DNA of 64,000 nt, from positions 1 through 64,000 of the forward strand of contig CM038999.1 in NCBI GenBank assembly GCA_017499595.2. Direction: 5' to 3'. The first letter of the stretch is position 1; each line of letters starts with the position of its first letter. The translations under genes were made by a program, and so were the position numbers. The stretch comes from Psilocybe cubensis (lineage: Eukaryota). The notes under the pieces are model-generated. The model was given only the letters and a program-made list of their open reading frames with translations. It ran no database searches and had not been told where the DNA came from. Shown one piece after another: positions 708-34,335 of this stretch.

Positions 708-772
708 AGCCACTGAAGAGTCTATAAAGACGAAAGGGCTGGTTGTTGGGATCCCCCAACAGCCCTCTGGCT
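708..772 (+). ncRNA. Type I hammerhead ribozyme in pLTR (intact)
   Basis: AGCCA-CUGAAGA-G-UCU(AUAA)AGA-C-GAAA-GGGCU...AGCCC-UC^-UGGCU. Core CUGANGA/GAAA/NUH and stems I-III all pair; predicted cut after C767. Confidence 0.9.
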
Positions 773-877
773 TCTTTCCATTTTAACTCCCAGTTTAAAC
801 TAGTCGCTCGCACCTCGCTTCGCTCGGTGCTCGCTCCCCCCTAAACCCAACGACTTTGCTATCACCCATCAGCCACT

Positions 878-3800
878 ATGTCATCCCAATATTCTGCTGC
901 TTTCTCTCGTGCCATGTCCCCCTCCCTGGACGCACTCACCCAGGCCGTCGTCAACAACACCGTCTTCGGCGTCAACGATGAAGCAGGCCGCCAAAACGCT
1001 CTCATCGACGAGCTGGCCACTGTGGTCATCAAGAAAATAGCTGAGTGCCGCTCCGTTGATCAAATAATAGACTGCGTCTTTTTTGACTATCGCGCTGCCC
1101 TTAGGGAGTTTCTCCTCAACCTCGCATCGTGGTGCGACAAGAGGGAAACAGTCAGGGCTAGCCTTGAGCGCCTTGAACTTGCCGTTAGCGCAGGGCAGCA
1201 CCCCCAATCGCCTTAAGGTGAAGGCTCCCGAGTTCCAACTCACGAAGGAATTCGCGGATGCCGGGTCAGCGGAGGCTCTTCGAGTCTCTACTACGTTCTC
1301 CACCGCTCGTGACGTCTCTTCCAAAAGGCGATTAACGACGGCGCCATTCAGGCGAAAAAGGACGAACTGGCCTTTTGGGAGGATAAATGCGCACTCGCTT
1401 CTTGCTATGAAGCTGCTGCGGTCATCGTTAAGACAACTTACGAAGACCGCAAGTCCAGCTATAAGCTCCCCGTTTTCTCTACAGACAACAAGGGAGTTCG
1501 TCGCATAGCAGAGTGGGTAACGTCGCCGCAAAAGAAAGCCGAGTGCAGTGCGCTGCAAACTATACTGCCGGCTATCTTTTCTCATATCAAACAAATTGTC
1601 AAATTGCGCCACCGCGCTTTGGCAATTAAGATTGAGAAAAAGCGGTCGACCGCGGCTACAGCCGATGTCGAGATGGCCGACGCGACCAAACCAGGTCCGT
1701 CGATTCAATCCCTTATTGATAAGGGCTTGAATGCACGTCTTAAGAAGCTCAACCTTGGATATGTGGGCAAGAAGGCAGGTTTTCGTAACCCTTCACCCAT
1801 AACTTTGGATACTAATTATTATTCTAATTACCCAGACTTCGTCTGGCCAGAGTTCGTCCAAGGCTCCTCAACCTCAGGCCAAGAAAACTGGCCCTTCGAA
1901 ACCCAAGTCGTCGTCGACGCCTTCGCAACGCAAGCCTCAAACCAAGGCTTCCAACAAGGTCGACAACAAGAAGAAAGGGAAGGGGAGAGCTCCCGTCAAG
2001 AACAACAATCCAAAGGGAAAGGGAAAGGCAAGAGCCTAAACACGCGGTCTAATGTAGTACCTTTTACGTCGGTAAGACCCGCTTTCCCCAACTCTATTCC
2101 TGACGATATACTCACCATGACTAAAACAGACGCAGTTTCATTTGTACACCTCAATACCCCAATTTCTTTCTTATTGGCTGGCCAGTATAGATCTAGTGTA
2201 CATTGTAGTCCTGGTGTTGTAGTTCCGGTTGATGTAGCAAACGACTTATCTCTCGGTTTAAATTATATGTTTTTCACACTGCCTTCTCAAAGTCTGATCA
2301 TGCAAGCATGGAATGATTTTCAACGAAGAATAAGATGGCGTATCTATTTTTTGTTTAAAGAAGGCATGAATAAACCTTTTGATCCAGATTATGGAGTAAG
2401 TTCTAAGAAAAAAGAAAAACCTCCTGTATTACCGCAATTTATGGAACTTGGCCTTTCAATGGGACGTCGGTACGTTATTAAAACGATCGCAAGTATCCCG
2501 GAAGAAGCCCTCAAGGAGATGCGAAAGCACGCGTTCTCTCCTAAAAGGGACAAGATCCAAAAGTTTCTTATCGATAACAACTATGTTATTACGATGACAG
2601 ATAAGAATCTTGGCCTCGCGGTGTCTGAACGCGACTGGATATTAAGGAATGAGCTCAATCTTCTTGAAGATGAACGTAATTACGAAGAGCTAGAATTCGA
2701 AGTTGCGCAAGAAGTAATGAAGAGCAAAATGATCCAGATGCAAACTCTTGCACGTACCGTCGAAGATGAACATCTGTTTCTATTTGAACTTGGGTTGTCT
2801 CGATTCTTTCTATCGAATGTACCGGAAGACGGATCATCGTTCAAGTATCCTCAATTTCATGGTATACCTAAAATCCACAAAAAACCTACTGGATTTAGGC
2901 CCATAATTCCGTGTCACTCTGTAGTATTTAATCCTGCAGCCAAGTTTGTATCAAAAGAGCTTAAGCCGATTATTAAATCGACTCCTTCAATCATTCACGG
3001 AACGAAGGATCTCTTTACGAGATTAAGCCAATTGCGTATAGACCCCCAAACGACAATGGTATTTTGTCACCGGGGATGTAGTTGCTTTCTATCCCAATAT
3101 TCCGTTGGACTTGTGCATCGAAATCGTTTGTAATATGTACGAGGAATGGTTACTCAACGCTTCGGAAGAAAACACTGCATTAGCCCATATTAATCCAAAT
3201 TCGTTAGAGAATAACTTGGTTAAATTGGGCATCTTTAAACGTGCTATCGAGATTGGCAATACGCAATTGATAACACAACATGGGTCTAGATATTTTAGAC
3301 AAAAAAAATGGCCTCGCAATGGGCGTCGCGGATTCTCCGGACCTTGCTAACCTCTTTGGAGCCCATTTTGAAATAAAGTCAAAAATCTTAAACCACCCAA
3401 ACGTGGCCTTCTATGGAAGGTACATCGACGATTGTTTCGCAATTGTTTACGCCGAGTCCGAAGCACTTGCACTTAATCTTATTAAAGAAACAATAAAGTT
3501 CGATGGTTGTGTTATCGAATGGGCTGTTTCCTCGTCGGGATGTCAATTTCTCGATGCTTTCATATTCAAGGAGTCTGGAAAACTTCATTGGAAGCCATTT
3601 GTCAAGACAGGAAACAACCGAGAACGAGTTCCATGGGTATCACATCATCCTTTTGGACGTCAAACGTGGCGTCTACATTGGAGAGTTATCCAGGTTAGCC
3701 GTGCTATGTAGTACCAAGGAAATCTACATCGGAGCAATTAGAGACCTTAACGCTCTCTATTTGATGCGCGGTTATCCCGAAAACCTAGTCATGTCTTGGT

Positions 3801-4417
3801 GTAAGAAGAATATACAAGAACGTTGGGAAAAGCGATTCGCTTTACGAGTCGCAGAGCACGACGAATCCATTCTTGTACTTAAAACCAGATTTGATCAGGT
3901 ATGGAATTGGTTTTCAGCTGCTGAACTTGGAAAGACTGTTACCGAGTACTGGTCGGCATGGTATGAACATGCCGAGAAAGGTCTGTATAGTGCAGACTCG
4001 TCCAGACCCCTTATCAAACCAGATCCAAATTACGTTCACGACCTCGATGATGTTCGCCCGGAGCTGTTCACACAGATCCTCGTGGACGGAGAAACTGAGT
4101 TCGTACCGGATTTGAGGAAGATAGGACTACTCGGAAGTCGTTGGATAGTATCGCGAAAGCGCAATACTAATCTTTTCGACCTTGCAAATGTGTGGAAGAA
4201 AACAGTCTTTCGTAAACTGGATGAAAACATCGCTGAAAAAGGTGGTGTTGTTCCCGAAACTCAAAACGTTAATGAAACTTATCATTCTGCTCTAGTTGAA
4301 GCTGCTGAACAGATAAGTATCGAAAGTGATAACGAGATAATACTTCATAGACGTTCAACCTCACAAGAGAGGGAACATCCAGAATTCGGCAGAATATCCA
4401 AATCTTACAACCGATGA
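878..4417 (+). pseudogene. RT polyprotein of unit 1, split by several small insertions (real decay or read errors)
   Basis: Near-identical to the intact 1176-aa copies but broken into ORFs 878-1216, 1604-3133, 3280-3711 and 3503-4417. Insertions fall mostly in homopolymers. Confidence 0.75.
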
Positions 4418-5128
4418 AAAGAATACTAGCGCGTAAGGCGTAAAGCATTAGAAAAAAAACCCTAACCGTAAGTATTCCTTGCTATAAAGTAACAAACATC
4501 TACTTACAAGCAACACTTTGGATTAAATAGCTAAACCTAAACCCTAAACCCTAAACCCTAAACCCTAACCTAACCCCAACCCTAAGCTAACTAAGTCTAA
4601 CCTTAGTAGGAAGTAAGGTAGGCGTGTGAACTTCCGAACGGCATGTGATTGTGAAGGGCCGGATCTAATTTAGTACATGGGAAAAGTTACTTAGTACTTC
4701 TGGAAAAGTTCCTTAGTACCGTGGAAACATTTTTGATGGACCGGATCATGAACTGTCCAATTAAGATTCACAACAATCAATCATTCTATTGTTTGATTGT
4801 TAGGTAAGGACCCAGGTAAGCTATTTATACTCTAGACATGTGAATATTCCCATGTCGCGGTTACTCGGAGCCACGTAACCAGAGTAATCTATATCCATGT
4901 GATTCACATCACAGTCAATAACCCACGATGTCAAAGAACAAAAGTGTTGGATCCACTTTTGACAGGTTACCATGTGCCACATCGACCCGTGACACTCTGT
5001 TCATCAGAGACCTGTCTAACTTGACAATAAACATTGACAGATTTGTGATAGTCGGTAAGATACATGACAGCTGCGCAGCATCACTTCACGCGCTGTCATC
5101 GGATGTCTAGAACATTCCTTCTAAGAAT

Positions 5129-5193
5129 AGCCACTGAAGAGTCTATAAAGACGAAAGGGCTGGTTGTTGGGATCCCCCAACAGCCCTCTGGCT
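5129..5193 (+). ncRNA. Hammerhead ribozyme (intact), 3' pLTR of unit 1
   Basis: Same motif as 708-772. Confidence 0.9.
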
Positions 5194-5349: not shown

Positions 5350-5944
5350 GCTAACTAAGTCTAACCTTAGTAGGAAGTAAGGTAGGCGTGTGAACTTCCG
5401 AAAGGCATGTGATTGTGAAGGGCCGGATCTAATTTAGTACATGGGAAAAGTTACTTAGTACCTCGGGAAAAGTTCCTTAGTACCGTGGAAACATTTTTGA
5501 TGGACCGGATCATGAACTGTCCAATTAAGATTCACAACAATCAATCAATTGATTATTAGGTAAGGACCCAGGTAAGCTATTTATACTCTTGACATGAGAA
5601 TATTCCCATGTCACGGTTACTCGGAGCCACGTAACCAGAGTATTTTATATCCATGTGATTCACATCACAGTCAATAACCCACGATGTCAAAGAACAAAAG
5701 TGTTGGATCCACTTTTGACAGGTTACCATGTGCCACATCGACCCGTGACACTCTGTTCATCAGAGATCTGTCTAACTTGACAATAAACATTGACAGATTT
5801 GTGATAGTCGGTAAGATACATGACAGCTGCGCAGCATCACTTCACGCGCTGTCATCGGATGTTCCAGAACATTCCTTCTAAGAATAGCCACTGAAGAGTC
5901 TATAAAGACGAAAGGGCTGGCTGCTGATAACAATCAACAGCCCT

Positions 5945-6873
5945 CAAGTACTCGTCCTCTCCCAAACTCCTGCCGCTTGTGCCTTCCCAACTCATCCGGG
6001 AGCCCTTTCGTCACTGATCTTGCCCTTGACTCGGGGACGTTTCATCGACATGTTGGCTGCCTCACGGCAAGCGGGGCCCTTTTTCTTTCACTCGCTCACG
6101 CCTTCTATGTTGGGTTACGGAGGTCATACAAACTCGTTTTAGTCTAGCTGCGGGGTTATCCAGCTATGATGACTTTGTAATTCGAGGGCGCGCAGTTCTT
6201 CAATGGGTATGGACATCAGGTGAGAGTACACTGGGGGTTGTCAGGACCAGCTCTGCTGGATACGCTCCTGGCAAGTCGGTTGCAGCCGGCGACACTACCG
6301 AATTGCTGGGACGTCCTAAAGCTTGTGGGTACCGCCGACCGCTGGAAACAGCCTAGGCACCGGTGGCGACCGGGTATGGTAACAATCCCCAAGATTCAGC
6401 GAAAGCTGGAATGGATAATCAGCAGCGAATCCGTAACGGTCACGCCGACGGAAGCGTTCAACGACTAGGTGGTAGTGGGGTCTTCGGATCTTAAGATATA
6501 GTCTTGGGAGTGGGGAAACCCACATCTGGTATCTAAACCGCGCCTCGCTGCTTACGAGGACGGCCCGAAGTCCAGAACCGCTTAAAACGCGGGTGACCCG
6601 GCCTCCCCTTAGTAAAGGGAGTTAACACAAGGATGGACAAATAGTTCGTCGCCGGAAATGAACCTGTGGCTGTAATGGCTGATGTGGCGCCCCTTGGTAA
6701 AGGGCTTAAAGGGTATTAGCCTGCCATGTCCAATGGCATGAGAGTGTCCCTTGGTAAAGGACTTAATAGGCAATAGCCTGCTCTTTTGTCATGAGCGGTA
6801 TGTAGTGATCGTTTGCCTGTACGGTAGCGCCCATTGCTTGCACTGGTCCACGCCCGTAAAAAATCACGAGCCG
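5945..6873 (+). ncRNA. Group I self-splicing intron (IC1-like, 929 nt, no homing endonuclease ORF) inserted in the hammerhead cleavage triplet
   Basis: Exact insertion relative to empty pLTRs (CAGCCCT|CTGGC): the exon ends in U and the intron ends in G. P AATTGCTGGG 6301; Q AATCAGCAG 6417; R GTTCAACGACTA 6456; S AAGATATAGTC 6493; P3 CACTACC 6293 / GGTAGTG 6471; P9 GAAA-loop hairpin 6510-6523. IGS GGGGTTGT 6234-6241 pairs with exon ACAGCCCT, with U.G at the splice site. Confidence 0.92.
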
Positions 6874-6985
6874 CTGGCCTTCTTTCCATTTAACTCACAG
6901 TTTAAACAAGTCGCTCGCACCTCGCTTCGCTCGGTGCTCGCTCCCCCCCTAAACCCAACGACTTTGCTATTACCCAACAGCTACT

Positions 6986-9900
6986 ATGTCTTCCACTTAC
7001 TCTGCTGCCTTCTCTCGTGCCATGTCCCCCACCCTGGACGCACTCACCCAGGCTGTCGTCAACAACACAGTTTTTGGCGTCAACGACGAAGCTGGCCGCC
7101 ACAACGCCCTCATCGACGAGTTGGCCACTGTCGTCATCAAGAAAATAGCTGAGTGCCGCTCCATTGACCAGATTGTAGACTGCGTCTTTTTTGACTATCG
7201 TGCTGCCCTTAGGGAGTTTCTCCTCAACCTCGCATCGTGGTGCGATAAGAGGGAAACAGTCAAGGCTAGCCTCGAGCGCCTTGAACTTGCCGTTAGCGCA
7301 GGCAACACCCCCAATCGCCTTCGGGTGAAGGCTCCCGAGTTCCAACTTACGAAGGAATTCGCGGATGCCGGGTCAGCGGAAGCTCTTCGAGTTTCCTCTA
7401 CGTTCTCCACCGCTCGTGATGTCTTCCAAAAGGCAATCAACGACGGCGCCATTCAGGCGAAAAAGGACGAACTGGCCTTTTGGGATGATAAATGCGCACT
7501 CAATAACTGTTATGAAGCTGCTGCCCTCATCGTTAAGACAACTTACGATGATCGCAAATCCAGCTATAAGCTCCCCGTTTTCTCTACAGACAACAAGGGA
7601 GTTCGTCGAATAACAGATTGGGTAGTGTCACCGCAGAAGAAGGCTGAATGCAGCGCATTGCAAACCATTTTGCCAGCCATCTTCTCTCATATCAAACAGA
7701 TTGTCAACTTGCGCCACCGCGCTTTGGCAATCAAGATTGAGAAAAAGCGGTCGACTGCGGCAACAGCCGATGTCGAGATGGCCGATGCGACCAAACCAGG
7801 TCCATCGATTCAATCCCTTATTGATAAGGGCTTGAATGCACGTCTCAAGAAGCTCAACCTTGGATCTGTGGGCAAGAAGGCAAGTTCTCGTAACCCTTCA
7901 CCCATAATTCTGGATACTAATTACTATTCTAATTACCCAGACTTTGTCTGGCCAGAATTCGTCCAAGGCTCCTCAACCTCAGGCCAAGAAAGCTGGCCCT
8001 TCGAAATTCAAACCCTCGTCGACGCCTTCGCAGAAGAAGCCCCTAACCAAGGCTTCCAACAAGGTCGACAACAAGAAGAAAGGGAAGGGGAGAGCTCCCG
8101 TCAAGAACGATCCAAAGGGAAAGGGAAAGGCAAGAGCCTAGACGCGCGGTCTAATGTAGTACCTTTTACGTCGGTAAGACCCGCCTTCCCCAACTCTATT
8201 CCTGACGATATACTCACCATGACTAAAACAGACGCAGTTTCTTTTGTACACTTACATACGCCGATCTCATTCTTGTTGGCTGGCCAGTATCGTAGTAGTG
8301 TACACTGTAGTCCTGGTGTGGTGGTCCCTGTAGATATAGCAAATGATTTATCACTCGGACTCAATTATATGTTTTTTACTCTACCTTCTCAAAGTCTGAT
8401 CATGCAAGCATGGAATGATTTTCAACGAAGAATAAGATGGCGTATCTATTTTTTGTTTAAGGAAGGCATGAACAAACCTTTTGATCCAGATTACGGAGTA
8501 AGCTCAAAAAAGAAAGAGAAACCTCCAGTATTACCGCAATACATGGAACTTGGCCTTTCGATGGGACGTCGGTACGTGCAACGCACGATCGCAAGTATCC
8601 CGGAAGAAGCCCTTACGGAGATGCGAAAGCACGCGTTCTCTCCTAAAAGGGACAAGATCCGTAAGTTTCTTATCGATAACAACTATGTTATTACGATGAC
8701 AGATAAGAATCTTGGCCTCGCGGTGTCTGAACGCGACTGGATATTAAGGAATGAGCTCAATCTTCTTGAAGATGAACGTAACTATGAAGAGTTAGAATTC
8801 GAAGTTGCGCAAGAAGTAATGAAGAGCAAAATGATCCAGATGCAAACTCTTGCACGTACCGTCGAAGATGAACATCTGTTTCTATTTGAACTTGGGTTGT
8901 CTCGATTCTTTCTATCGAATGTACCGGAAGACGGATCATCGTTCAAGTATCCTCAATTTCATGGTATACCTAAAATCCACAAAAAACCTACTGGATTTAG
9001 GCCCATAATTCCGTGTCACTCTGTAGTATTTAATCCTGCAGCCAAGTTTGTATCAAAAGAGCTTAAGCCGATTATTAAATCGACTCCTTCAATCATTCAC
9101 GGAACGAAGGATCTCTTTACGAGATTAAGCCAATTGCGTATAGACCCCAAACGACAATGGTATTTTGTCACCGGGGATGTAGTTGCTTTCTATCCCAATA
9201 TTCCGTTGGACTTGTGCATCGAAATCGTTTGTAATATGTACGAGGAATGGTTACTCAACGCTTCGGAAGAAAACACTGCATTAGCCCATATTAATCCAAA
9301 TTCGTTAGAGAATAACTTGGTTAAATTGGGCATCTTTAAACGTGCTATCGAGATTGGCAATACGCAATTGATAACACAACATGGGTCTAGATATTTTAGA
9401 CAAAAAAATGGCCTCGCAATGGGCGTCGCGGATTCTCCGGACCTTGCTAACCTCTTTGGAGCCCATTTTGAAATAAAGTCAAAAATCTTAGACCACCCAA
9501 ACGTGGCCTTCTATGGAAGGTACATCGACGATTGTTTCGCAATTGTTTACGCCGAGTCCGAAGCACTTGCACTTAATCTTATTAAAGAAACAATAAAGTT
9601 CGATGGTTGTGTTATCGAATGGGCTGTTTCCTCGTCGGGATGTCAATTTCTCGATGCTTTCATATTCAAGGAGTCTGGAAAACTTCATTGGAAGCCATTT
9701 GTCAAGACAGGAAACAACCGAGAACGAGTTCCATGGGTATCACATCATCCTTTGGACGTCAAACGTGGCGTCTACATTGGAGAGTTATCCAGGTTAGCCG
9801 TGCTATGTAGTACCAAGGAAATCTACATCGGAGCAATTAGAGACCTTAACGCTCTCTATTTGATGCGCGGTTATCCCGAAAACCTAGTCATGTCTTGGTG

Positions 9901-10516
9901 TAAGAAGAATATACAAGAACGTTGGGAAAAGCGATTCGCTTTACGAGTCGCAGAGCACGACGAATCCATTCTTGTACTTAAAACCAGATTTGATCAGGTA
10001 TGGAATTGGTTTTCAGCTGCTGAACTTGGAAAAACTGTTACCGAGTACTGGTCGGCATGGTATGAACATGCCGAGAAAGGTTTGTATAGTGCAGACTCGT
10101 CCAGACCCCTTATCAAACCAGATCCAAATTACGTTCACGACCTCGATGATGTTCGCCCGGAGCTGTTCACACAGATCCTCGTGGACGGAGAAACTGAGTT
10201 CGTACCGGATTTGAGGAAGATAGGACTACTCGGAAGTCGTTGGATAGTATCGCGAAAACGCAATACTAATCTTTTCGACCTTGCAAATGTGTGGAAGAAA
10301 ACAGTCTTTCGTAAACTGGATGAAGACATCGCTGAAAAAGGTGGTGTTGTTCCCGAAACTCAAAACGTTAATGAAACTTATCATTCTGCTTTAGTTGAAG
10401 CTGCTGAACAGATAAGTATCGAAAGTGATAACGAGATAATACTTCATAGACGTTCAATCTCACAAGAGAGGGAACATCCAGAATTCGGCAGAATATCCAA
10501 ATCTTACAACCGATGA
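6986..10516 (+). CDS. Penelope-like RT polyprotein, 1176 aa; no GIY-YIG endonuclease recognisable
   Basis: RT motifs IPKIHK..FRPII, FVTGDVVAFYPNI, QKNGLAMG, GRYIDD, FLD; PLE-type thumb region (SHHP..VKRG..GELSR). Confidence 0.95.
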   Translation: MSSTYSAAFSRAMSPTLDALTQAVVNNTVFGVNDEAGRHNALIDELATVVIKKIAECRSIDQIVDCVFFDYRAALREFLLNLASWCDKRETVKASLERLELAVSAGNTPNRLRVKAPEFQLTKEFADAGSAEALRVSSTFSTARDVFQKAINDGAIQAKKDELAFWDDKCALNNCYEAAALIVKTTYDDRKSSYKLPVFSTDNKGVRRITDWVVSPQKKAECSALQTILPAIFSHIKQIVNLRHRALAIKIEKKRSTAATADVEMADATKPGPSIQSLIDKGLNARLKKLNLGSVGKKASSRNPSPIILDTNYYSNYPDFVWPEFVQGSSTSGQESWPFEIQTLVDAFAEEAPNQGFQQGRQQEEREGESSRQERSKGKGKGKSLDARSNVVPFTSVRPAFPNSIPDDILTMTKTDAVSFVHLHTPISFLLAGQYRSSVHCSPGVVVPVDIANDLSLGLNYMFFTLPSQSLIMQAWNDFQRRIRWRIYFLFKEGMNKPFDPDYGVSSKKKEKPPVLPQYMELGLSMGRRYVQRTIASIPEEALTEMRKHAFSPKRDKIRKFLIDNNYVITMTDKNLGLAVSERDWILRNELNLLEDERNYEELEFEVAQEVMKSKMIQMQTLARTVEDEHLFLFELGLSRFFLSNVPEDGSSFKYPQFHGIPKIHKKPTGFRPIIPCHSVVFNPAAKFVSKELKPIIKSTPSIIHGTKDLFTRLSQLRIDPKRQWYFVTGDVVAFYPNIPLDLCIEIVCNMYEEWLLNASEENTALAHINPNSLENNLVKLGIFKRAIEIGNTQLITQHGSRYFRQKNGLAMGVADSPDLANLFGAHFEIKSKILDHPNVAFYGRYIDDCFAIVYAESEALALNLIKETIKFDGCVIEWAVSSSGCQFLDAFIFKESGKLHWKPFVKTGNNRERVPWVSHHPLDVKRGVYIGELSRLAVLCSTKEIYIGAIRDLNALYLMRGYPENLVMSWCKKNIQERWEKRFALRVAEHDESILVLKTRFDQVWNWFSAAELGKTVTEYWSAWYEHAEKGLYSADSSRPLIKPDPNYVHDLDDVRPELFTQILVDGETEFVPDLRKIGLLGSRWIVSRKRNTNLFDLANVWKKTVFRKLDEDIAEKGGVVPETQNVNETYHSALVEAAEQISIESDNEIILHRRSISQEREHPEFGRISKSYNR
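7880..7940 (+). other. Putative 61-nt GC-AG spliceosomal intron inside the RT ORF (present in all six units)
   Basis: AAG|GCAAGT donor, TACTAAT/TTCTAAT branch candidates, CCCAG| acceptor. Removal opens a Lys-rich frame ending at TAG 8141. Confidence 0.65.
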
Positions 10517-11225
10517 AAAGAATACTAGCGCGTAAGGCGTAAAGCATTAGAAAAAAACCCTAACCGTAAGTATTCCTTGCTACAAAGTAACAAACATCTA
10601 CTTACAAGCAACACATTGGATTAAATAGCTAAACCTAAACCTAAACCCTAAACCCTAAACCCTAAGCCCTAACCTAACCCCAACCCTAAGCTAACTAAGT
10701 CTAACCTTAGTAGGAAGTAAGGTAGGCGTGTGAACTTCCGAAAGGCATGTGATTGTGAAGGGCCGGATCTAATTTAGTACATGGGAAAAGTTACTTAGTA
10801 CCTCGGGAAAAGTTCCTTAGTACCGTGGAAACATTTTTGATGGACCGGATCATGAACTGTCCAATTAAGATTCACAACAATCAATCAATTGATTATTAGG
10901 TAAGGACCCAGGTAAGCTATTTATACTCTTGACATGAGAATATTCCCATGTCACGGTTACTCGGAGCCACGTAACCAGAGTATTTTATATCCATGTGATT
11001 CACATCACAGTCAATAACCCACGATGTCAAAGAACAAAAGTGTTGGATCCACTTTTGACAGGTTACCATGTGCCACATCGACCCGTGACACTCTGTTCAT
11101 CAGAGATCTGTCTAACTTGACAATAAACATTGACAGATTTGTGATAGTCGGTAAGATACATGACAGCTGCGCAGCATCACTTCACGCGCTGTCATCGGAT
11201 GTTCCAGAACATTCCTTCTAAGAAT

Positions 11226-11289: not shown

Positions 11290-11963
11290 CTTCTTTCCAT
11301 TTAACTCACAGTTTAAACAAGTCGCTCGCACCTCGCTTCGCTCGGTGCTCGCTCCCCCCCTAAACCTAAACCTAAACCCTAAACCCTAAACCCTAAACCC
11401 TAACCTAACCCCAACCCTAAGCTAACTAAGTCTAACCTTAGTAGGAAGTAAGGTAGGCGTGTGAACTTCCGAACGGCATGTGATTGTGAAGGGCCGGATC
11501 TAATTTAGTACATGGGAAAAGTTACTTAGTACTTCGGGAAAAGTTCCTTAGTACCGTGGAAACATTTTTGATGGACCGGATCATGAACTGTCCAATTAAG
11601 ATTCACAACAATCAATCATTCTATTGTTTGATTGTTAGGTAAGGACCCAGGTAAGCTATTTATACTCTAGACATGTGAATATTCCCATGTCGCGGTTACT
11701 CGGAGCCACGTAACCAGAGTAATCTATATCCATGTGATTCACATCACAGTCAATAACCCACGATGTCAAAGAACAAAAGTGTTGGATCCACTTTTGACAG
11801 GTTACCATGTGCCACATCGACCCGTGACACTCTGTTCATCAGAGACCTGTCTAACTTGACAATAAACATTGACAGATTTGTGATAGTCGGTAAGATACAT
11901 GACAGCTGCGCAGCATCACTTCACGCGCTGTCATCGGATGTCTAGAACATTCCTTCTAAGAAT

Positions 11964-12027
11964 AGCCACTGAAGAGTCTATAAAGACGAAAGGGCTGGTT
12001 GTTGGGATCCCCCAACAGCCCTCTGGC
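11964..12027 (+). ncRNA. Hammerhead ribozyme (intact), 5' pLTR of unit 3
   Basis: Same motif. Confidence 0.88.
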
Positions 12028-12136: not shown

Positions 12137-15100
12137 ATGTCATCCCAATACTCTGCTGCATTCTCTCGTGCCATGTCCCCTACCCTGGACGCACTCACCC
12201 AGGCCGTCGTCAACAACACTGTCTTCGGCGTCAACGATGAAGCAGGCCGCCATAACGCTCTTATCGACGAGCTGGCCACTGTGGTCATCAAAAAAATAGC
12301 TGAGTGCCGCTCCGTTGACCAAGTCATAGACTGCGTCTTTTTTGACTATCGTGCTGCCCTCAGGGAGTTTCTCCTCAACCTCGCATCGTGGTGCGACAAG
12401 AGGGAAACAGTCAAGGCTAGCCTCGAGCGCCTTGAATCTGCCGTTAGCGCAGGCAACACGCCCAATCGCCTTAAGGTGAAGGCACCCGAGTTCCAACTTA
12501 CGAAGGAATTCGCGGATGCCGGGTCAGCGGAGGCTCTTCGAGTCTCCACTACGTTCTCTTCCGCTCGTGATGCCTTCCAAAAGGCAATTAACGACGGCGC
12601 CGTTCAGGCGAAAAAGGACGAGCTGGCTTTTTGGGATGATAAATGCGCGCTCAACTCTTGCTACGAAGCTGCTGCCCTCATCGTTAAGGCAACTTACGAT
12701 GATCGCAAATCCAGCTACAAGCTCCCTGTTTTCTCTACAGACAACAAGGGAGTTCGACGTATAGCAGAGTGGGTAGTGTCTCCGCAAAAGAAAGCCGAAT
12801 GCAGTGCGCTGCAAACTATACTGCCGGCGATCTTTTCTCATATCAAACAGATTGTCAACATGCGCCACCGCGCCTTGGCAATTAAGATTGAGAAAAAGCG
12901 GACGACTGCGGCAACAGCCGATGTCGAGATGGCCGATGCGACCAAACCAGGTCCATCGATTCAATCCCTTATTGATAAGGGCTTGAATGCACGTCTCAAA
13001 AAGCTCAACCTTGGATCGGTGGGCAAGAAGGCAAGTTTTCGTAACCCTTCACCCATAATTCTGGACACTAATTATTACTCTAATTACCCAGACTTTGTCT
13101 GGCCAGAATTCGTCCAAGGCTCCTCAACCTCAGGCCAGGAAAGCTGGCCCTTCGAAACCCAAGTCGTCGTCGACGCCTTCGCAGAGGAAGCCTCAAACCA
13201 AGGCTTCCAACAAGGTCGACAACAAGAAGAAAGGGAAGGGGAGAGCTCCCGTCAAGAACAACGATCCAAAGGGAAAGGGAAAGGCAAGAGCCTAGACGCG
13301 CGGTCTACTGTAGCATCATTTACGTCGGTGAGACCCGCCTTCCCCAACTCTATTCCTGACGATATACTCACCATGACTAAAACAGACGCAGTTTCTTTTG
13401 TACACCTCAATACCCCGATTTCATTCTTATTGGCTGGCCAGTATAGATCTAGTGTACACTGTAGTCCTGGTGTTTCGGTCCCTGTTGATGTAGCAAATGA
13501 TTTATCTCTTGGACTCAATTATATGTTTTTTACACTGCCTTCTAAAAATCTGATCATGCAAGCATGGAATGATTTTCAACGAAGAATAAGATGGCGTATC
13601 TATTTTTTGTTTAAAGAAGGCATGAATAAACCTTTCGATCCAGACTATGGAGTAAGCTCTAAAAAGAAAGAGAAACCTCCAATGTTACCGCAATTTATGG
13701 AACTTGGCCTTTCAATGGGACGTCGGTACGTTATTAAAACGATCGCAAGTATCCCGGAAGAAGCCCTTAAAGAGATGCGAAAGCACGCGTTCTCTCCTAA
13801 AAGGGACAAGATCCAAAAGTTTCTTTTCGATAACAACTATGTTATTACGATGACAGATAAGAATCTTGGCCTCGCGGTGTCTGAACGCGACTGGATATTA
13901 AGGAATGAGCTCAATCTTCTTGAAGATGAACGCAACTACGAAGAGTTAGAATTCGAAGTTGCGCAAGAAGTTATGAAGAGCAAAATGATTCAGATGCAAA
14001 CTCTCGCACGTACCGTCGAAGATGAACATCTGTTTCTATTTGAACTTGGGTTGTCTCGATTCTTTCTATCGAATGTACCGGAAGATGGATCATCGTTCAA
14101 GTATCCTCAATTTCATGGTATACCTAAAATCCACAAGAAACCTACTGGATTTAGGCCCATAATTCCGTGTCACTCTGTAGTATTTAATCCTGCAGCCAAG
14201 TTTGTATCAAAAGAGCTTAAGCCGATTATTAAATCGACTCCTTCAATCATTCACGGAACGAAGGATCTCTTTACGAGATTAAGCCAATTGCGTATAGACC
14301 CCAAACGACAATGGTATTTTGTCACCGGGGATGTAGTTGCTTTCTATCCCAATATTCCGTTGGACTTGTGCATCGAAATCGTTTGTAATATGTACGAGGA
14401 ATGGTTACTCAACGCTTCGGAAGAGAACACTGCATTAGCCCATATTAATCCAAATTCGTTAGAGAATAACTTGGTTAAATTGGGCATCTTTAAACGTGCT
14501 ATCGAGATTGGCAATACGCAATTGATAACACAACATGGGTCTAGATATTTTAGACAAAAAAATGGCCTCGCAATGGGCGTCGCGGATTCTCCGGACCTTG
14601 CTAACCTCTTTGGAGCCCATTTTGAAATAAAGTCAAAAATCTTAGACCACCCAAACGTGGCCTTCTATGGAAGGTACATCGACGATTGTTTCGCAATTGT
14701 TTACGCCGAGTCCGAAGCACTTGCACTTAATCTTATTAAAGAAACAATAAAGTTCGATGGTTGTGTTATCGAATGGGCTGTTTCCTCGTCGGGATGTCAA
14801 TTTCTCGATGCTTTCATATTCAAGGAGTCTGGAAAACTTCATTGGAAGCCATTTGTCAAGACAGGAAACAACCGAGAACGAGTTCCATGGGTATCACATC
14901 ATCCTTTGGACGTCAAACGTGGCGTCTACATTGGAGAGTTATCCAGGTTAGCCGTGCTATGTAGTACCAAGGAAATCTACATCGGAGCAATTAGAGACCT
15001 TAACGCTCTCTATTTGATGCGCGGTTATCCCGAAAACCTAGTCATGTCTTGGTGTAAGAAGAATATACAAGAACGTTGGGAAAAGCGATTCGCTTTACGA

Positions 15101-15670
15101 GTCGCAGAGCACGACGAATCCATTCTTGTACTTAAAACCAGATTTGATCAGGTATGGAATTGGTTTTCAGCTGCTGAACTTGGAAAGACTGTTACCGAGT
15201 ACTGGTCGGCATGGTATGAACATGCCGAGAAAGGTTTGTATAGTGCAGACTCGTCCAGACCCCTTATCAAACCAGATCCAAATTACGTTCACGACCTCGA
15301 TGATGTTCGCCCGGAGTTGTTCACACAGATCCTCGTGGACGGAGAAACTGAGTTCGTACCGGATTTGAGGAAGATAGGACTACTCGGAAGTCGTTGGATA
15401 GTATCGCGAAAACGCAATACTAATCTTTTCGACCTTGCAAATGTGTGGAAGAAAACAGTCTTTCGTAAACTGGATGAAAACATCGCTGAAAAAGGTGGTG
15501 TTGTTCCCGAAACTCAAAACGTTAATGAAACTTATCATTCTGCTTTAGTTGAAGCTGCTGAACAGATAAGTATCGAAAGTGATAACGAGATAATACTTCA
15601 TAGACGTTCAATCTCACAAGAGAGGGAACATCCAGAATTCGGCAGAATATCCAAATCTTACAACCGATGA
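12137..15670 (+). CDS. Penelope-like RT polyprotein, 1177 aa
   Basis: Intact ORF with the same RT motifs. Confidence 0.95.
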   Translation: MSSQYSAAFSRAMSPTLDALTQAVVNNTVFGVNDEAGRHNALIDELATVVIKKIAECRSVDQVIDCVFFDYRAALREFLLNLASWCDKRETVKASLERLESAVSAGNTPNRLKVKAPEFQLTKEFADAGSAEALRVSTTFSSARDAFQKAINDGAVQAKKDELAFWDDKCALNSCYEAAALIVKATYDDRKSSYKLPVFSTDNKGVRRIAEWVVSPQKKAECSALQTILPAIFSHIKQIVNMRHRALAIKIEKKRTTAATADVEMADATKPGPSIQSLIDKGLNARLKKLNLGSVGKKASFRNPSPIILDTNYYSNYPDFVWPEFVQGSSTSGQESWPFETQVVVDAFAEEASNQGFQQGRQQEEREGESSRQEQRSKGKGKGKSLDARSTVASFTSVRPAFPNSIPDDILTMTKTDAVSFVHLNTPISFLLAGQYRSSVHCSPGVSVPVDVANDLSLGLNYMFFTLPSKNLIMQAWNDFQRRIRWRIYFLFKEGMNKPFDPDYGVSSKKKEKPPMLPQFMELGLSMGRRYVIKTIASIPEEALKEMRKHAFSPKRDKIQKFLFDNNYVITMTDKNLGLAVSERDWILRNELNLLEDERNYEELEFEVAQEVMKSKMIQMQTLARTVEDEHLFLFELGLSRFFLSNVPEDGSSFKYPQFHGIPKIHKKPTGFRPIIPCHSVVFNPAAKFVSKELKPIIKSTPSIIHGTKDLFTRLSQLRIDPKRQWYFVTGDVVAFYPNIPLDLCIEIVCNMYEEWLLNASEENTALAHINPNSLENNLVKLGIFKRAIEIGNTQLITQHGSRYFRQKNGLAMGVADSPDLANLFGAHFEIKSKILDHPNVAFYGRYIDDCFAIVYAESEALALNLIKETIKFDGCVIEWAVSSSGCQFLDAFIFKESGKLHWKPFVKTGNNRERVPWVSHHPLDVKRGVYIGELSRLAVLCSTKEIYIGAIRDLNALYLMRGYPENLVMSWCKKNIQERWEKRFALRVAEHDESILVLKTRFDQVWNWFSAAELGKTVTEYWSAWYEHAEKGLYSADSSRPLIKPDPNYVHDLDDVRPELFTQILVDGETEFVPDLRKIGLLGSRWIVSRKRNTNLFDLANVWKKTVFRKLDENIAEKGGVVPETQNVNETYHSALVEAAEQISIESDNEIILHRRSISQEREHPEFGRISKSYNR

Positions 15671-16386: not shown

Positions 16387-16450
16387 AGCCACTGAAGAGT
16401 CTATAAAGACGAAAGGGCTGGTTGTTGGGATCCCCCAACAGCCCTCTGGC
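16387..16450 (+). ncRNA. Hammerhead ribozyme (intact), 3' pLTR of unit 3
   Basis: Same motif. Confidence 0.88.
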
Positions 16451-17198
16451 CTTCTTTCTATTTCAAACTCACAGTTTAAACTAGTCGCTCGCACCTCGCT
16501 TCGCTCGGTGCTCGCTCCCCCCCTAAACCCTAAACCCTAACCCTAAACCTAAACCTAAACCCTAAACCCTAAACCCTAAGCCCTAACCTAACCCCAACCC
16601 TAAGCTAACTAAGTCTAACCTTAGTAGGAAGTAAGGTAGGCGTGTGAACTTCCGAAAGGCATGTGATTGTGAAGGGCCGGATCTAATTTAGTACATGGGA
16701 AAAGTTACTTAGTACCTCGGGAAAAGTTCCTTAGTACCGTGGAAACATTTTTGATGGACCGGATCATGAACTGTCCAATTAAGATTCACAACAATCAATC
16801 AATTGATTGTTAGGTAAGGACCCAGGTAAGCTATTTATACTCTTGACATGAGAATATTCCCATGTCACGGTTACTCGGAGCCACGTAACCAGAGTATTTT
16901 ATATCCATGTGATTCACATCACAGTCAATAACCCACGATGTCAAAGAACAAAAGTGTTGGATCCACTTTTGACAGGTTACCATGTGCCACATCGACCCGT
17001 GACACTCTGTTCATCAGAGATCTGTCTAACTTGACAATAAACATTGACAGATTTGTGATAGTCGGTAAGATACATGACAGCTGCGCAGCATCACTTCACG
17101 CGCTGTCATCGGATGTTCCAGAACATTCCTTCTAAGAATAGCCACTGAAGAGTCTATAAAGACGAAAGGGCTGGCTGCTGATAACAATCAACAGCCCT

Positions 17199-18127
17199 CA
17201 AGTACTCGTCCTCTCCCAAACTCCTGCCGCTTGTGCCTTCCCAACTCATCCGGGAGCCCTTTCGTCACTGATCTTGCCCTTGACTCGGGGACGTTTCATC
17301 GACATGTTGGCTGCCTCACGGCAAGCGGGGCCCTTTTTCTTTCACTCGCTCACGCCTTCTATGTTGGGTTACGGAGGTCATACAAACTCGTTTTAGTCTA
17401 GCTGCGGGGATATCCAGCTATGATGACTTTGTAATTCGAGGGCGCGCAGTTCTTCAATGGGTATGGACATCAGGTGAGAGTACACTGGGGGTTGTCAGGA
17501 CCAGCTCTGCTGGATACGCTCCTGGCAAGTCGGTTGCAGCCGGCGACACTACCGAATTGCTGGGACGTCCTAAAGCTTGTGGGTACCGCCGACCGCTGGA
17601 AACAGCCTAGGCACCGGTGGCGACCGGGTATGGTAACAATCCCCAAGATTCAGCGAAAGCTGGAATGGATAATCAGCAGCGAATCCGTAACGGTCACGCC
17701 GACGGAAGCGTTCAACGACTAGGTGGTAGTGGGGTCTTCGGATCTTAAGATATAGTCTTGGGAGTGGGGAAACCCACATCTGGTATCTAAACCGCGCCTC
17801 GCTGCTTACGAGGACGGCCCGAAGTCCAGAACCGCTTAAAACGCGGGTGACCCGGCCTCCCCTTAGTAAAGGGAGTTAACACAAGGATGGACAAATAGTT
17901 CGTCGCCGGAAATGAACCTGTGGCTGTAATGGCTGATGTGGCGCCCCTTGGTAAAGGGCTTAAAGGGTATTAGCCTGCCATGTCCAATGGCATGAGAGTG
18001 TCCCTTGGTAAAGGACTTAATAGGCAATAGCCTGCTCTTTTGTCATGAGCGGTATGTAGTGATCGTTTGCCTGTACGGTAGCGCCCATTGCTTGCACTGG
18101 TCCACGCCCGTAAAAAATCACGAGCCG
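17199..18127 (+). ncRNA. Group I intron copy 2 (929 nt) in the hammerhead cleavage triplet
   Basis: Near-identical to 5945-6873 with the same junctions. Confidence 0.92.
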
Positions 18128-18239: not shown

Positions 18240-21200
18240 ATGTCTTCCACTTACTCTGCTGCCTTCTCTCGTGCCATGTCCCCCACCCTGGACGCACTCA
18301 CCCAGGCTGTCGTCAACAACACAGTTTTTGGCGTCAACGACGAAGCTGGCCGCCACAACGCCCTCATCGACGAGTTGGCCACTGTCGTCATCAAGAAAAT
18401 AGCTGAGTGCCGCTCCATTGACCAGATTGTAGACTGCGTCTTTTTTGACTATCGTGCTGCCCTTAGGGAGTTTCTCCTCAACCTCGCATCGTGGTGCGAT
18501 AAGAGGGAAACAGTCAAGGCTAGCCTCGAGCGCCTTGAACTTGCCGTTAGCGCAGGCAACACCCCCAATCGCCTTCGGGTGAAGGCTCCCGAGTTCCAAC
18601 TTACGAAGGAATTCGCGGATGCCGGGTCAGCGGAAGCTCTTCGAGTTTCCTCTACGTTCTCCACCGCTCGTGATGTCTTCCAAAAGGCAATCAACGACGG
18701 CGCCATTCAGGCGAAAAAGGACGAACTGGCCTTTTGGGATGATAAATGCGCACTCAATAACTGTTATGAAGCTGCTGCCCTCATCGTTAAGACAACTTAC
18801 GATGATCGCAAATCCAGCTATAAGCTCCCCGTTTTCTCTACAGACAACAAGGGAGTTCGTCGAATAACAGATTGGGTAGTGTCACCGCAGAAGAAGGCTG
18901 AATGCAGCGCATTGCAAACCATTTTGCCAGCCATCTTCTCTCATATCAAACAGATTGTCAACTTGCGCCACCGCGCTTTGGCAATCAAGATTGAGAAAAA
19001 GCGGTCGACTGCGGCAACAGCCGATGTCGAGATGGCCGATGCGACCAAACCAGGTCCATCGATTCAATCCCTTATTGATAAGGGCTTGAATGCACGTCTC
19101 AAGAAGCTCAACCTTGGATCTGTGGGCAAGAAGGCAAGTTCTCGTAACCCTTCACCCATAATTCTGGATACTAATTACTATTCTAATTACCCAGACTTTG
19201 TCTGGCCAGAATTCGTCCAAGGCTCCTCAACCTCAGGCCAAGAAAGCTGGCCCTTCGAAATTCAAACCCTCGTCGACGCCTTCGCAGAAGAAGCCCCAAA
19301 CCAAGGCTTCCAACAAGGTCGACAACAAGAAGAAAGGGAAGGGGAGAGCTCCCGTCAAGAACGATCCAAAGGGAAAGGGAAAGGCAAGAGCCTAGACGCG
19401 CGGTCTAATGTAGTACCTTTTACGTCGGTAAGACCCGCCTTCCCCAACTCTATTCCTGACGATATACTCACCATGACTAAAACAGACGCAGTTTCTTTTG
19501 TACACTTACATACGCCGATCTCATTCTTGTTGGCTGGCCAGTATCGTAGTAGTGTACACTGTAGTCCTGGTGTGGTGGTCCCTGTAGATATAGCAAATGA
19601 TTTGTCACTCGGACTCAATTATATGTTTTTTACTCTACCTTCTCAAAGTCTGATCATGCAAGCATGGAATGATTTTCAACGAAGAATAAGATGGCGTATC
19701 TATTTTTTGTTTAAGGAAGGCATGAACAAACCTTTTGATCCAGATTACGGAGTAAGCTCAAAAAAGAAAGAGAAACCTCCAGTATTACCGCAATACATGG
19801 AACTTGGCCTTTCGATGGGACGTCGGTACGTGCAACGCACGATCGCAAGTATCCCGGAAGAAGCCCTTACGGAGATGCGAAAGCACGCGTTCTCTCCTAA
19901 AAGGGACAAGATCCGTAAGTTTCTTATCGATAACAACTATGTTATTACGATGACAGATAAGAATCTTGGCCTCGCGGTGTCTGAACGCGACTGGATATTA
20001 AGGAATGAGCTCAATCTTCTTGAAGATGAACGTAACTATGAAGAGTTAGAATTCGAAGTTGCGCAAGAAGTAATGAAGAGCAAAATGATCCAGATGCAAA
20101 CTCTTGCACGTACCGTCGAAGATGAACATCTGTTTCTATTTGAACTTGGGTTGTCTCGATTCTTTCTATCGAATGTACCGGAAGACGGATCATCGTTCAA
20201 GTATCCTCAATTTCATGGTATACCTAAAATCCACAAAAAACCTACTGGATTTAGGCCCATAATTCCGTGTCACTCTGTAGTATTTAATCCTGCAGCCAAG
20301 TTTGTATCAAAAGAGCTTAAGCCGATTATTAAATCGACTCCTTCAATCATTCACGGAACGAAGGATCTCTTTACGAGATTAAGCCAATTGCGTATAGACC
20401 CCAAACGACAATGGTATTTTGTCACCGGGGATGTAGTTGCTTTCTATCCCAATATTCCGTTGGACTTGTGCATCGAAATCGTTTGTAATATGTACGAGGA
20501 ATGGTTACTCAACGCTTCGGAAGAAAACACTGCATTAGCCCATATTAATCCAAATTCGTTAGAGAATAACTTGGTTAAATTGGGCATCTTTAAACGTGCT
20601 ATCGAGATTGGCAATACGCAATTGATAACACAACATGGGTCTAGATATTTTAGACAAAAAAATGGCCTCGCAATGGGCGTCGCGGATTCTCCGGACCTTG
20701 CTAACCTCTTTGGAGCCCATTTTGAAATAAAGTCAAAAATCTTAGACCACCCAAACGTGGCCTTCTATGGAAGGTACATCGACGATTGTTTCGCAATTGT
20801 TTACGCCGAGTCCGAAGCACTTGCACTTAATCTTATTAAAGAAACAATAAAGTTCGATGGTTGTGTTATCGAATGGGCTGTTTCCTCGTCGGGATGTCAA
20901 TTTCTCGATGCTTTCATATTCAAGGAGTCTGGAAAACTTCATTGGAAGCCATTTGTCAAGACAGGAAACAACCGAGAACGAGTTCCATGGGTATCACATC
21001 ATCCTTTGGACGTCAAACGTGGCGTCTACATTGGAGAGTTATCCAGGTTAGCCGTGCTATGTAGTACCAAGGAAATCTACATCGGAGCAATTAGAGACCT
21101 TAACGCTCTCTATTTGATGCGCGGTTATCCCGAAAACCTAGTCATGTCTTGGTGTAAGAAGAATATACAAGAACGTTGGGAAAAGCGATTCGCTTTACGA

Positions 21201-23225: not shown

Positions 23226-23292
23226 TAGCCACTGAAGAGTCTATAAAGACGAAAGGGCTGGTTGTTGGGATCCCCCAACAGCCCTCTGGCTA
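23226..23292 (+). ncRNA. Hammerhead ribozyme (intact; 6-bp stem I TAGCCA/TGGCTA), 5' pLTR of unit 5
   Basis: Same core. Confidence 0.88.
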
Positions 23293-27642: not shown

Positions 27643-27709
27643 TAGCCACTGAAGAGTCTATAAAGACGAAAGGGCTGGTTGTTGGGATCCCCCAACAGCC
27701 CTCTGGCTA
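27643..27709 (+). ncRNA. Hammerhead ribozyme (intact), 3' pLTR of unit 5
   Basis: Same motif. Confidence 0.88.
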
Positions 27710-33740: not shown

Positions 33741-33804
33741 AGCCACTGAAGAGTCTATAAAGACGAAAGGGCTGGTTGTTGGGATCCCCCAACAGCCCTC
33801 TGGC
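33741..33804 (+). ncRNA. Hammerhead ribozyme (intact), 3' pLTR of unit 6
   Basis: Same motif. Confidence 0.88.
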
Positions 33805-33874
33805 CTTCTTTCTATTTCAAACTCACAGTTTAAACTAGTCGCTCGCACCTCGCTTCGCTCGGTGCTCGCTCCCC

Positions 33875-33970
33875 CCCTAAACCCTAAACCCTAAACCCTA
33901 AACCCTAAACCCTAAACCCTAAACCCTAAACCCTAACCCTAAACCCTAAACCCTAAACCCTAAACCCTAA
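33875..33970. repeat. Interstitial telomeric tract (former chromosome end)
   Basis: About 13 CCCTAAA units. Confidence 0.95.
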
Positions 33971-34303: not shown

Positions 34304-34335
34304 TAAACCCTAAACCCTAAACCCTAAACCCTAAA

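Follow-up and report, generated by a model that had tools for sequence, protein, structure and literature searches.

Can a splicing ribozyme reside within the catalytic core of a cleaving ribozyme, and what would such nesting entail for the two? The question is raised by the end of a chromosome of the fungus Psilocybe cubensis (GenBank assembly GCA_017499595.2, contig CM038999.1, positions 1 to 64,000 of the forward strand; we refer to this entire 64,000-nt stretch as the window). Here, Penelope-like elements (PLEs)—retroelements whose open reading frames (ORFs) are flanked by pseudo-long terminal repeats (pLTRs)—lie head-to-tail, and each pLTR carries a hammerhead ribozyme motif. An original prediction, made from the sequence without database searches, had held that three of these motifs are interrupted by a group I intron. 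According to the accessible parts of reviews on the subject, all known nuclear group I introns sit in ribosomal DNA (rDNA). Our computational follow-up points to a family of group I introns that probably leads a selfish existence in telomeric retroelements, and to a nested arrangement in which hammerhead cleavage would have to await splicing.

A motif search recovered 14 type I hammerheads in the window. The 5’ half of the motif (CTGA.GAG...CGAAA) occurs 14 times and CAGCCCTCTGGC 11 times on the plus strand, the latter against 0.01 occurrences expected from shuffled sequences. Eleven hammerheads are intact and read CAGCCCT-CTGGC; in the remaining three, split at the identical site, the same CAGCCCT and CTGGC are separated by 929 nt. 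The inserts occupy positions 5945-6873, 17199-18127 and 28454-29382 on the plus strand, and core nucleotide C3 of the respective split hammerheads lies at 5891, 17145 and 28400. Copies 1 and 3 of the insert are identical, and copy 2 differs from them by a single base (T/A at intron position 212). Motif search and copy comparison thereby bore out the numbers of intact and interrupted motifs, the insert length and the coordinates given in the original prediction. When the full 64 kb were searched against Rfam at the gathering cut-offs, the three inserts matched the Intron_gpI model (RF00028; 73.0, 73.0 and 70.9 bits versus a cut-off of 50), and nothing beyond these three matches was returned.

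Comparison with the 11 intron-less copies defines the insert boundaries to within one base: a C can be assigned to either side, and the sequence alone would also permit an insertion exactly at the scissile bond. We chose the register in which the insert lies between hammerhead nucleotides U16.1 and C17, because it fits both the group I rules and the guide pairing described below. In this register, the exon base 5’ of the intron is a U, the intron begins with CAAG, and its last base is a G (the omega-G, at 6873, 18127 and 29382). On its sequence, the 929-nt insert is a structurally complete group I intron that separates U16.1 from C17 in a hammerhead carried by retroelements at the end of a nuclear chromosome. 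The insertion point that had been proposed is thus upheld in the group I register, with the one-C ambiguity attached.

The predicted match between an internal guide sequence and the exon could likewise be located. The guide sequence UGGGGGUUGU (6232-6241) forms the 3’ strand of a putative 10-bp P1 helix, whose 5’ strand (5937-5946) spans the splice site: its first eight bases end the exon and double as the 3’ strand of hammerhead stem III, and the other two open the intron. The helix includes the U.G wobble typical of a 5’ splice site, formed by U5944 and G6234. In a pairing search, this site came out top among all candidates; it lies directly 5’ of P2, and its position is homologous in the relatives introduced below. 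The minimum-energy fold of 5930-6245 also includes P1, lengthened by 6 bp through pairing of GUACUC with GAGUAC (the latter at 6218-6223). Between the two P1 strands extends a distal P1/L1 insertion domain of ~285 nt (5947-6231), with a pyrimidine-rich start and a GUUCUUCAAUGG...GACAUCAGGU motif in common with L073, a metagenomic relative. As a side observation, a GUUCUUCAAUGG..AUAGACAU.AGGU stretch is found just 5’ of the guide sequence both in the window (6193-6216) and in one of the two L073 introns, L073a (L073 7444-7470).

Downstream of the guide sequence, the intron follows the group I plan as had been claimed. Alignment, covariation and structure placement put P2 at 6242-6270 and P2.1 at 6275-6290. 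The catalytic core (6293-6523), placed by the RF00028 match, covariation and structure, comprises P3 (6293-6299/6471-6477), P4-P5 with a three-way P5a/b/c extension and an additional GAAA hairpin (6397-6408), P6 (6425-6455), P7 (GACUA at 6463-6467 with UAGUC at 6499-6503), P8 (6479-6490) with a UUCG loop, and P9 (6510-6523) with a GAAA loop. The R and S elements could be placed and, like P7, are intact, and GGGTATGGTAACAA, which the original prediction had likened to P5abc of Tetrahymena, is present at 6372-6385. A peripheral extension of P9 (6524-6872) contains three CCCUUxGUAAAGGG hairpins (6605-6621, 6690-6704 and 6748-6762) and is partly shared with L073 and a further relative, L071. No sense ORF of at least 40 amino acids was found within the intron, merely two short antisense ORFs (69 and 57 amino acids), and nothing in the sequence suggests a homing endonuclease.

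Is the interrupted motif a genuine hammerhead? Every pLTR shows the layout AGCCA-CUGAAGA-GUCUAUAAAGAC-GAAA-(30-nt stem III)-U-C-UGGC(U). The invariant core (C3 U4 G5 A6 N7 G8 A9, G12 A13 A14, A15.1-U16.1 and H17) is complete in all 11 intact copies and, after joining of the exons, in the three split ones as well. Stem III is long; two variants of its sequence, A and B, occur, each of which can fold, and the centroid fold of one intact copy is a three-way junction. The original prediction had looked to Rfam models for both ribozymes. While the intron scored above its cut-off, the hammerhead remained below every one of them (RAGATH-1, 29.1 versus 56.3 bits, E 0.03 in 2.1 kb; Hammerhead_3, 19.5 versus 48.5 bits). 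We therefore turned to covariation in relatives, drawing on 80 metagenomic loci (the best of 154 relatives of the element’s reverse transcriptase, RT, among 336 candidate stretches). A descriptor demanding at least 3 bp per helix and at least 11 bp over the three helices recognized 55 motifs, distributed over 40 of 81 sources, namely 39 metagenomic loci and the window with its 11 intact copies. All 55 lie on the RT strand and have the same core including U16.1, with C (25), U (25) or A (5) at position H17, and their stems I, II and III are dissimilar in sequence yet complementary. The pLTR motif is, by its core, its helices and this covariation rather than by Rfam score, a genuine hammerhead to which no specific Rfam family is assigned. 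That PLE pLTRs carry hammerheads, as the original prediction had stated, agrees with the accessible part of a published survey: it describes hammerheads from fungal PLEs that have a large helix III and cleave as monomers, and reports activity for one from Serpula (Cervera and de la Pena 2014, PMC4209133).

Two side observations concern these motifs. A third stem III variant (loop CGTTTGTACCCCCAAACAGCCCT, at the site corresponding to 5920-5944) is frequent in sequencing run X16 of another strain and does not occur in the window. Moreover, five metagenomic loci (L009, L023, L026, L039 and L064) each contain two identical hammerheads 4.2-5.3 kb apart around an RT ORF; in these contigs, tandem arrays have probably been collapsed into a single unit length during assembly.

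What does the nesting imply for the two ribozymes? In split copy 1, the 5’ portion of the hammerhead (5886-5944; stem III variant A) comprises the stem I 5’ strand AGCCA, CUGAAGA, stem II, GAAA, stem III and U16.1 at 5944, and the 3’ portion (6874-6879) provides C17 (6874) and the stem I 3’ strand UGGC(C). By copy comparison, the 5’ portions of split copies 2 and 3 map to 17140-17198 (variant A) and 28395-28453 (variant B), all on the plus strand. It follows from this arrangement that the split hammerhead should be unable to assemble in unspliced RNA, because the 3’ strand of stem III is at the same time the exon strand of P1, and because C17 and the 3’ strand of stem I are 929 nt away; cleavage would depend on prior splicing. 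The predicted order is to splice, then cleave, since joining the exons yields the sequence of the intact motif without any change. The hammerhead thus restored would go on to cleave one base downstream of the junction between the exons—in copy 1 at the bond 6874/6875. Splicing, reverse splicing and hammerhead cleavage of the window copies are steps that we infer.

The array itself allows intron-bearing and intron-less elements to be compared. Its five inner units, C1 to C5, each contain an RT ORF on the plus strand: C1 at 6986-10516 (1176 amino acids), C2 at 12137-15670 (1177), C3 at 18240-21770 (1176), C4 at 23397-26927 (1176) and C5 at 29497-33030 (1177). C1, C3 and C5 bear the intron; C2 and C4 are intron-less. 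With the intron excluded, the units fall into two lineages ~4.4% apart, A (C1 and C3, 99.26% identical to each other) and B (C2, C4 and C5), so that intron copy 3 resides in a lineage-B element. Outside the intron, 227 of 5142 aligned sites distinguish C1 from C5; none does so within it, where vertical descent would give ~40 differences. Conversely, carrier C5 and intron-less C2 differ at only 13 of 5154 sites (99.75% identity), and their upstream pLTRs are 100% identical apart from the intron. The flanks of the C5 intron are of B type from 11 nt upstream and 14 nt downstream. As judged from these comparisons, the 929-nt intron was gained or lost exactly at its group I boundaries between near-identical copies, and crossed between lineages without its flanks. 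Splicing or reverse splicing at the RNA level, coupled to reverse transcription, would fit this pattern, as the boundaries are exact and the flanks were not carried along.

Raw reads of X16, a separate DNA run, corroborate the intron and show variants at a few positions. The summed depth was ~100 over the intron, compared with 300-400 over the ORF and ~1400 over the pLTR; at an expected depth of ~35-40x, which presupposes an estimated genome size of ~40 Mb, the intron is present in a few copies. Given this low raw-read depth, the intron is not part of high-copy rDNA at a likeness of at least 90%. Contigs from the runs of two other organisms likewise carry the intron at a small fraction of the pLTR depth, and the intron share of pLTR depth is ~7% in X16, 4% in X1 and 25% in X10. 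Joints of position 5944 to 6874 in DNA runs represent the intron-less pLTR allele. In X18, a run guessed to be RNA, a single 351-nt contig starts at most 2 nt from C17, covers 6874-6953 up to a C-run/TAAA, and continues into unrelated sequence; it may stem from another leader-bearing transcript or element.

Within the window, all three introns sit in the pLTR directly 5’ of an intact ORF, and none in a downstream pLTR. The same holds for the metagenomic loci L073 and L065, where the intron lies in the pLTR or leader 5’ of the ORF and the other pLTR on the same contig is free of it. Possibly, the intron persists only upstream since, in the downstream pLTR, it would block formation of the 3’ end of the template RNA; the alternative cause, which we do not rank against the former, would be that the two pLTRs derive from RNAs that had been processed differently.

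How widespread is the intron in related elements? A blastn search with the window intron matched four of the 80 loci. Rfam at gathering, applied to 20 of the 80 (the longest and the blast-positive ones), returned only two RF00028 introns, both in L073 (76.5 and 72.8 bits). We built a covariance model, R1, from the window intron and the two L073 introns and searched it over the 80 loci and the window. Eight matches resulted: the three window copies, L073 twice, L065 (76.7 bits), L052 (58.6 bits) and L071 (29.5 bits, clipped by the contig end), with those in L065, L052 and L071 coming from R1 alone, a three-sequence model with rough E-values. The family is thus represented in four of 80 loci (L073, L065, L052 and L071), always on the RT strand and either 5’ of the ORF or at its start. 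In the alignment of the six distinct family sequences, pairing is seen in 91% of cells, and both partners are altered in 35 of 81 pairs; none of 500 shuffles equalled the observed pairing, and slid partners paired to at most 47%. Compensatory changes in P3, P5a, P8 and P9 are plain already in an unfitted MAFFT alignment, while P7 is invariant across the family, its support coming from sequence only.

The relatives occupy other sites than the window intron. On L073, the intron-less downstream pLTR (...CAACUG-U-U/GUGCC-AGCUUCGU-CGCAAC...) serves as the reference that places L073a 13 nt 3’ of the hammerhead cleavage site, with the same signature as in the window: a U before the intron, CA at its start, G at its end and C after it. 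A first reading, in which L073a lay between U16.1 and nucleotide 17, was ruled out by this very pLTR. The hammerhead motif adjoining L073a (at 7165) was missed by the descriptor parse. In L052, the hammerhead is intact and the intron lies within ~12 nt after it; in L065, the hammerhead is again intact and the intron lies ~55 nt further on, past a conserved UCGCUUCGCUCG hairpin (both boundaries are approximate). A second L073 intron, L073b (~8170-9180, approximate ends; 76.5 bits in Rfam), is positioned at the RT ORF’s start codon or immediately beyond it. Among the family members that could be placed, only that of the window element is inside a hammerhead core. Separately, we note that the 3’ flank of L073b, G/CUGGCUCUGC, resembles that of the window intron, G/CUGGCCUUCU.

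Taken together, we favor the view—as the likelier one, without considering it secure—that we are dealing with a family of ORF-less, selfish group I introns in the 5’ leader or pLTR of fungal telomeric Coprina-type PLEs, which is likely to spread by reverse splicing and the host element’s RT. Free intron RNA would reverse-splice into element RNA at a short guide-matching site (...CAGCCCU/C), and the element’s own RT would then copy the intron-bearing RNA onto the chromosome end. The intron is not essential to the element: only three of the 14 hammerheads are occupied, and intron-less elements keep ORFs of 1176-1177 amino acids. The broader proposition, namely that a lineage of nuclear group I introns has left rDNA for telomeric PLEs, spreads there through reverse splicing and the element RT, and gave rise to nested ribozymes with a fixed order of action, has in our estimate about an even chance of being right.

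Several observations weigh against this interpretation. P1-like helices of at least 10 bp arose somewhere in 32 of 2000 mononucleotide shuffles, which is why the weight of P1 rests on its position beside P2 and on homology rather than on its length. It is unusual for a guide sequence to lie ~285 nt away from the 5’ splice site, and the fold of the intervening region is no better than that of shuffled sequences (z -1.37). The candidate P10 pairing next to the guide sequence amounts to 1 bp; an alternative P10 (UCAG/CUGG, 4 bp) is located 17 nt upstream and is kept in L073b, but not in L073a. P1 of L073a is itself weak, with five contiguous base pairs at the homologous place and a 6-bp competitor elsewhere. 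The family-wide pairing counts were taken from an alignment fitted to the model, which favors the structure. Finally, as C1 and C3 are near-identical sisters, the upstream-pLTR pattern of the window represents two independent lineages at most.

Which other scenarios could account for the locus? The original prediction had offered two readings, a hyperparasite and an evolved two-step switch. In the latter, self-splicing would have been recruited by the element to license cleavage, timing when the leader loses its 5’ pLTR part and any cap, or separating translation from RT templates. The sequence logic of the nest, which makes cleavage strictly conditional on splicing, is what such a switch would look like, as is the contest of P1 and hammerhead stem III for one exon strand, and the invariable upstream location of the introns (three out of three in the window, with L073 and L065 alike) points the same way. 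Yet the intron occupies a minority of copies, by count in the window and by depth in X16, X1 and X10; intron-less sister elements are intact; the introns of L073, L065 and L052 spare the hammerhead by lying 12-13 nt, ~55 nt or further downstream; and the recent move between lineages is parasite-like. An adaptive switch, which gained no support, hence strikes us as decidedly unlikely, and it was minority occupancy, intact intron-less ORFs, the other sites in relatives and the recent inter-lineage move that led us to favor the selfish passenger, in keeping with the first of the two readings. The presence/absence pattern might also have arisen at the DNA level, through ectopic gene conversion or unequal exchange among pLTRs, or through a homing endonuclease acting in trans, with no reverse splicing involved. 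Dozens of near-identical pLTRs in tandem arrays favor recombination, and the intron positions repeat every 11,254-11,255 bp, hinting at an array-level duplication (C1 and C2 versus C3 and C4). Such a periodicity, though, would predict C5 to be of lineage A, whereas it belongs to B; in C5, a conversion tract would be confined to at most 10 nt on the 5’ side of the intron and at most 13 nt on its 3’ side; the intron lacks sense ORFs of at least 40 amino acids; and the varied sites in related elements suit a guide-driven choice better than homology-driven conversion. Very short conversion tracts would nonetheless be compatible with the data, which counts against reverse splicing. On balance, we regard spread at the DNA level as unlikely.

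It is improbable, in our view, that the intron is an inactive relic, captured once (for example from rDNA), incapable of splicing ever since, and multiplied by array duplication at the expense of three hammerheads. The weak P10, the long and unusual 5’ insertion, and the 99.26% identity of C1 and C3 would be in keeping with decay and passive duplication, but the core is intact, the three copies differ by no more than one base, and the helices are maintained by compensatory changes across distant elements. Besides, the precise presence or absence of the intron in units that are 99.75% identical, together with its identity across lineages 4.4% diverged, calls for recent, precise insertion or excision, and a 10-bp match between guide and exon would be unexpected in a foreign intron that was merely captured. 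The one-C ambiguity gives rise to a last scenario, in which the scissile bond itself is the insertion point: the reverse hammerhead reaction or an RNA ligase would have joined a foreign RNA between the two cleavage products, and the joined RNA would then have been reverse-transcribed. Though the boundaries ...CCCUC/AAGU...GCCGC/UGGC are equally compatible with the DNA, in that register no U precedes the insert and no G ends it, while pairing of guide sequence and exon, wobble G included, is obtained in the U/C register, and L073a shows its U/CA...G/C signature 13 nt away from its own cleavage site. We consider this scenario hardly credible.

The host array of the selfish intron, as we prefer to read it, extends from the chromosome end inwards. 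A terminal (CCCTAAA)n run of ~150 nt (positions 1-150, by direct reading) degenerates into the first pLTR, and six PLE units follow head-to-tail up to ~35.5 kb, the ORF of each being flanked by pLTRs of ~750 nt. Telomeric repeat runs between units are short (for example, 10620-10700 and 11360-11410). Both the terminal and the inter-element repeats are of the 7-nt CCCTAAA (TTTAGGG) type; locus L073 has the CCCTAA type. In contrast to the five inner units, the ORF of the outermost element (768-5188) is broken, being split into 1604-3133 and 3503-4417, and a long antisense ORF is present at 881-1708. The translated ORFs hold RT motifs, including a YIDD of the F/YxDD type. Residues 520-1020 matched the Pfam family RVT_1 with 27.4 bits, just below the cut-off of 29.6 (E 3.2e-6), whereas the full-length ORF proteins returned no Pfam domain, the GIY-YIG endonuclease included, and a sequence search of PDB gave no match either. 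The nearest database proteins, 100, 99 and 98% identical over the searched part, are labelled as hypothetical or RT-domain proteins of Psilocybe cubensis. Because of the lack of an endonuclease match, the telomeric head-to-tail array, the telomeric repeats between units and the hammerheads in the pLTRs, the array matches, by architecture, endonuclease-less PLEs of the Athena/Coprina kind, the name Coprina being descriptive here, not phylogenetic. Elements of this kind are described, in the accessible part of the relevant paper, as attaching to telomeres and as having reverse-complement telomeric repeats and hammerhead motifs (PMC8557442).

The 11 intact hammerheads, all on the plus strand and found by motif search or descriptor, are distributed over the array as follows. 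Variant B occurs at 709-771, at 5130-5192 (which yielded the best sub-threshold Rfam match), at 11965-12027 in the upstream pLTR of C2, at 16388-16450, 23228-23290 and 27645-27707, and at 33742-33804 in the downstream pLTR of intron-bearing C5. Variant A is found in the downstream pLTRs of the intron-bearing units C1 (11227-11289) and C3 (22481-22543), and at 34163-34225 in a pLTR remnant; a B-like copy at 35455-35517 is the innermost. At the inner edge of the array (33801-35513), two ORF-less pLTR remnants have hammerhead cleavage sites 421 and 1292 nt apart; the motif at 34163-34225 belongs to the former, and the 650 nt 5’ of that motif are only ~65-70% like other pLTRs. Between hammerhead and ORF (window 6917-6937), there is a hairpin whose loop, UCGCUUCGCUCG, is almost invariant and whose stems covary (GCACC/GGUGC, GCAACUUU/AAAGUUGC, CCCACCCACCC/GGGUGGGUGGG, AAUCG/CGAUU and CAGC/GCUG). 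The hairpin was further located in L047 (~225-247), L052 (~1545-1575), L065 (~80-100 and 735-752), L071 (~738-772) and L073 (8087-8117 and 13588-13618).

How does the locus compare with known systems? Nuclear group I introns are familiar from the rDNA of fungi and protists, the Tetrahymena large-subunit (LSU) intron being one example, and fall into subgroups IC1 and IE. The window intron shares with them the RF00028 core from P3 to P9 with its R and S elements, the U.G pair at the 5’ splice site, the terminal G, the three-way P5 extension, the GAAA loop L9 and, as with many rDNA introns, the lack of an ORF. It departs from them in residing at low copy in the leader of a telomeric retroelement, in the ~285-nt gap between splice site and guide sequence, and in a very short P8. 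Twin-ribozyme introns, in which a lariat-capping ribozyme is embedded in a splicing ribozyme, occur in the rDNA of myxomycetes and Naegleria. There, too, one natural ribozyme is nested in another and the reactions are ordered, but in the window the nesting is inverted, with a large splicing ribozyme inside a small one that cleaves, a retroelement serves as host, and a homing endonuclease gene is missing. The spread that we propose resembles in outline the retrohoming of mobile group II introns, in that base-pair-guided reverse splicing would be succeeded by reverse transcription; it would differ in that the window intron belongs to group I, its target would be RNA, and the RT would be borrowed from the host element. 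Transposition of group I introns by reverse splicing and reverse transcription has long been postulated, and we know of no clear natural example, a source of RT having been the missing piece.

As regards the hammerhead, the window motifs resemble those of telomeric fungal PLEs, as described in the accessible part of the survey cited above, in being of type I, in their large helix III, in their presence in both flanking repeats and in their location on the RT strand; they are unlike them in that three have their core split by a 929-nt ribozyme (PMC4209133). The nearest precedent is the Drosophila virilis Penelope element, which, according to the same source, harbors a spliceosomal intron that ends at the 5’ end of hammerhead helix I (PMC4209133). 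In both cases, splicing alters which pLTR hammerhead can form; the D. virilis intron, however, is spliceosomal and abuts helix I, whereas the window intron is of group I and sits between U16.1 and C17, both steps being predicted to be RNA-catalyzed. A literature search, covering sources outside subscription journals and supplements, did not turn up any description of a group I intron in PLEs or at fungal telomeres, and in the accessible parts of PLE papers the term ‘group I intron’ comes up only with regard to the origin of the GIY-YIG endonuclease. A family of such introns in the leaders of chromosome-end retroelements would break the rDNA-only rule for nuclear group I introns. It would offer a natural test system for transposition by reverse splicing plus reverse transcription—and, if our reading holds, a natural instance of it—in which the host element supplies the RT. 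As lineages with and without the intron are otherwise near-alike, a ready comparison is at hand, and this compact natural case of one ribozyme predicted to control another should be useful for studies of RNA folding and of hammerhead function in PLEs.

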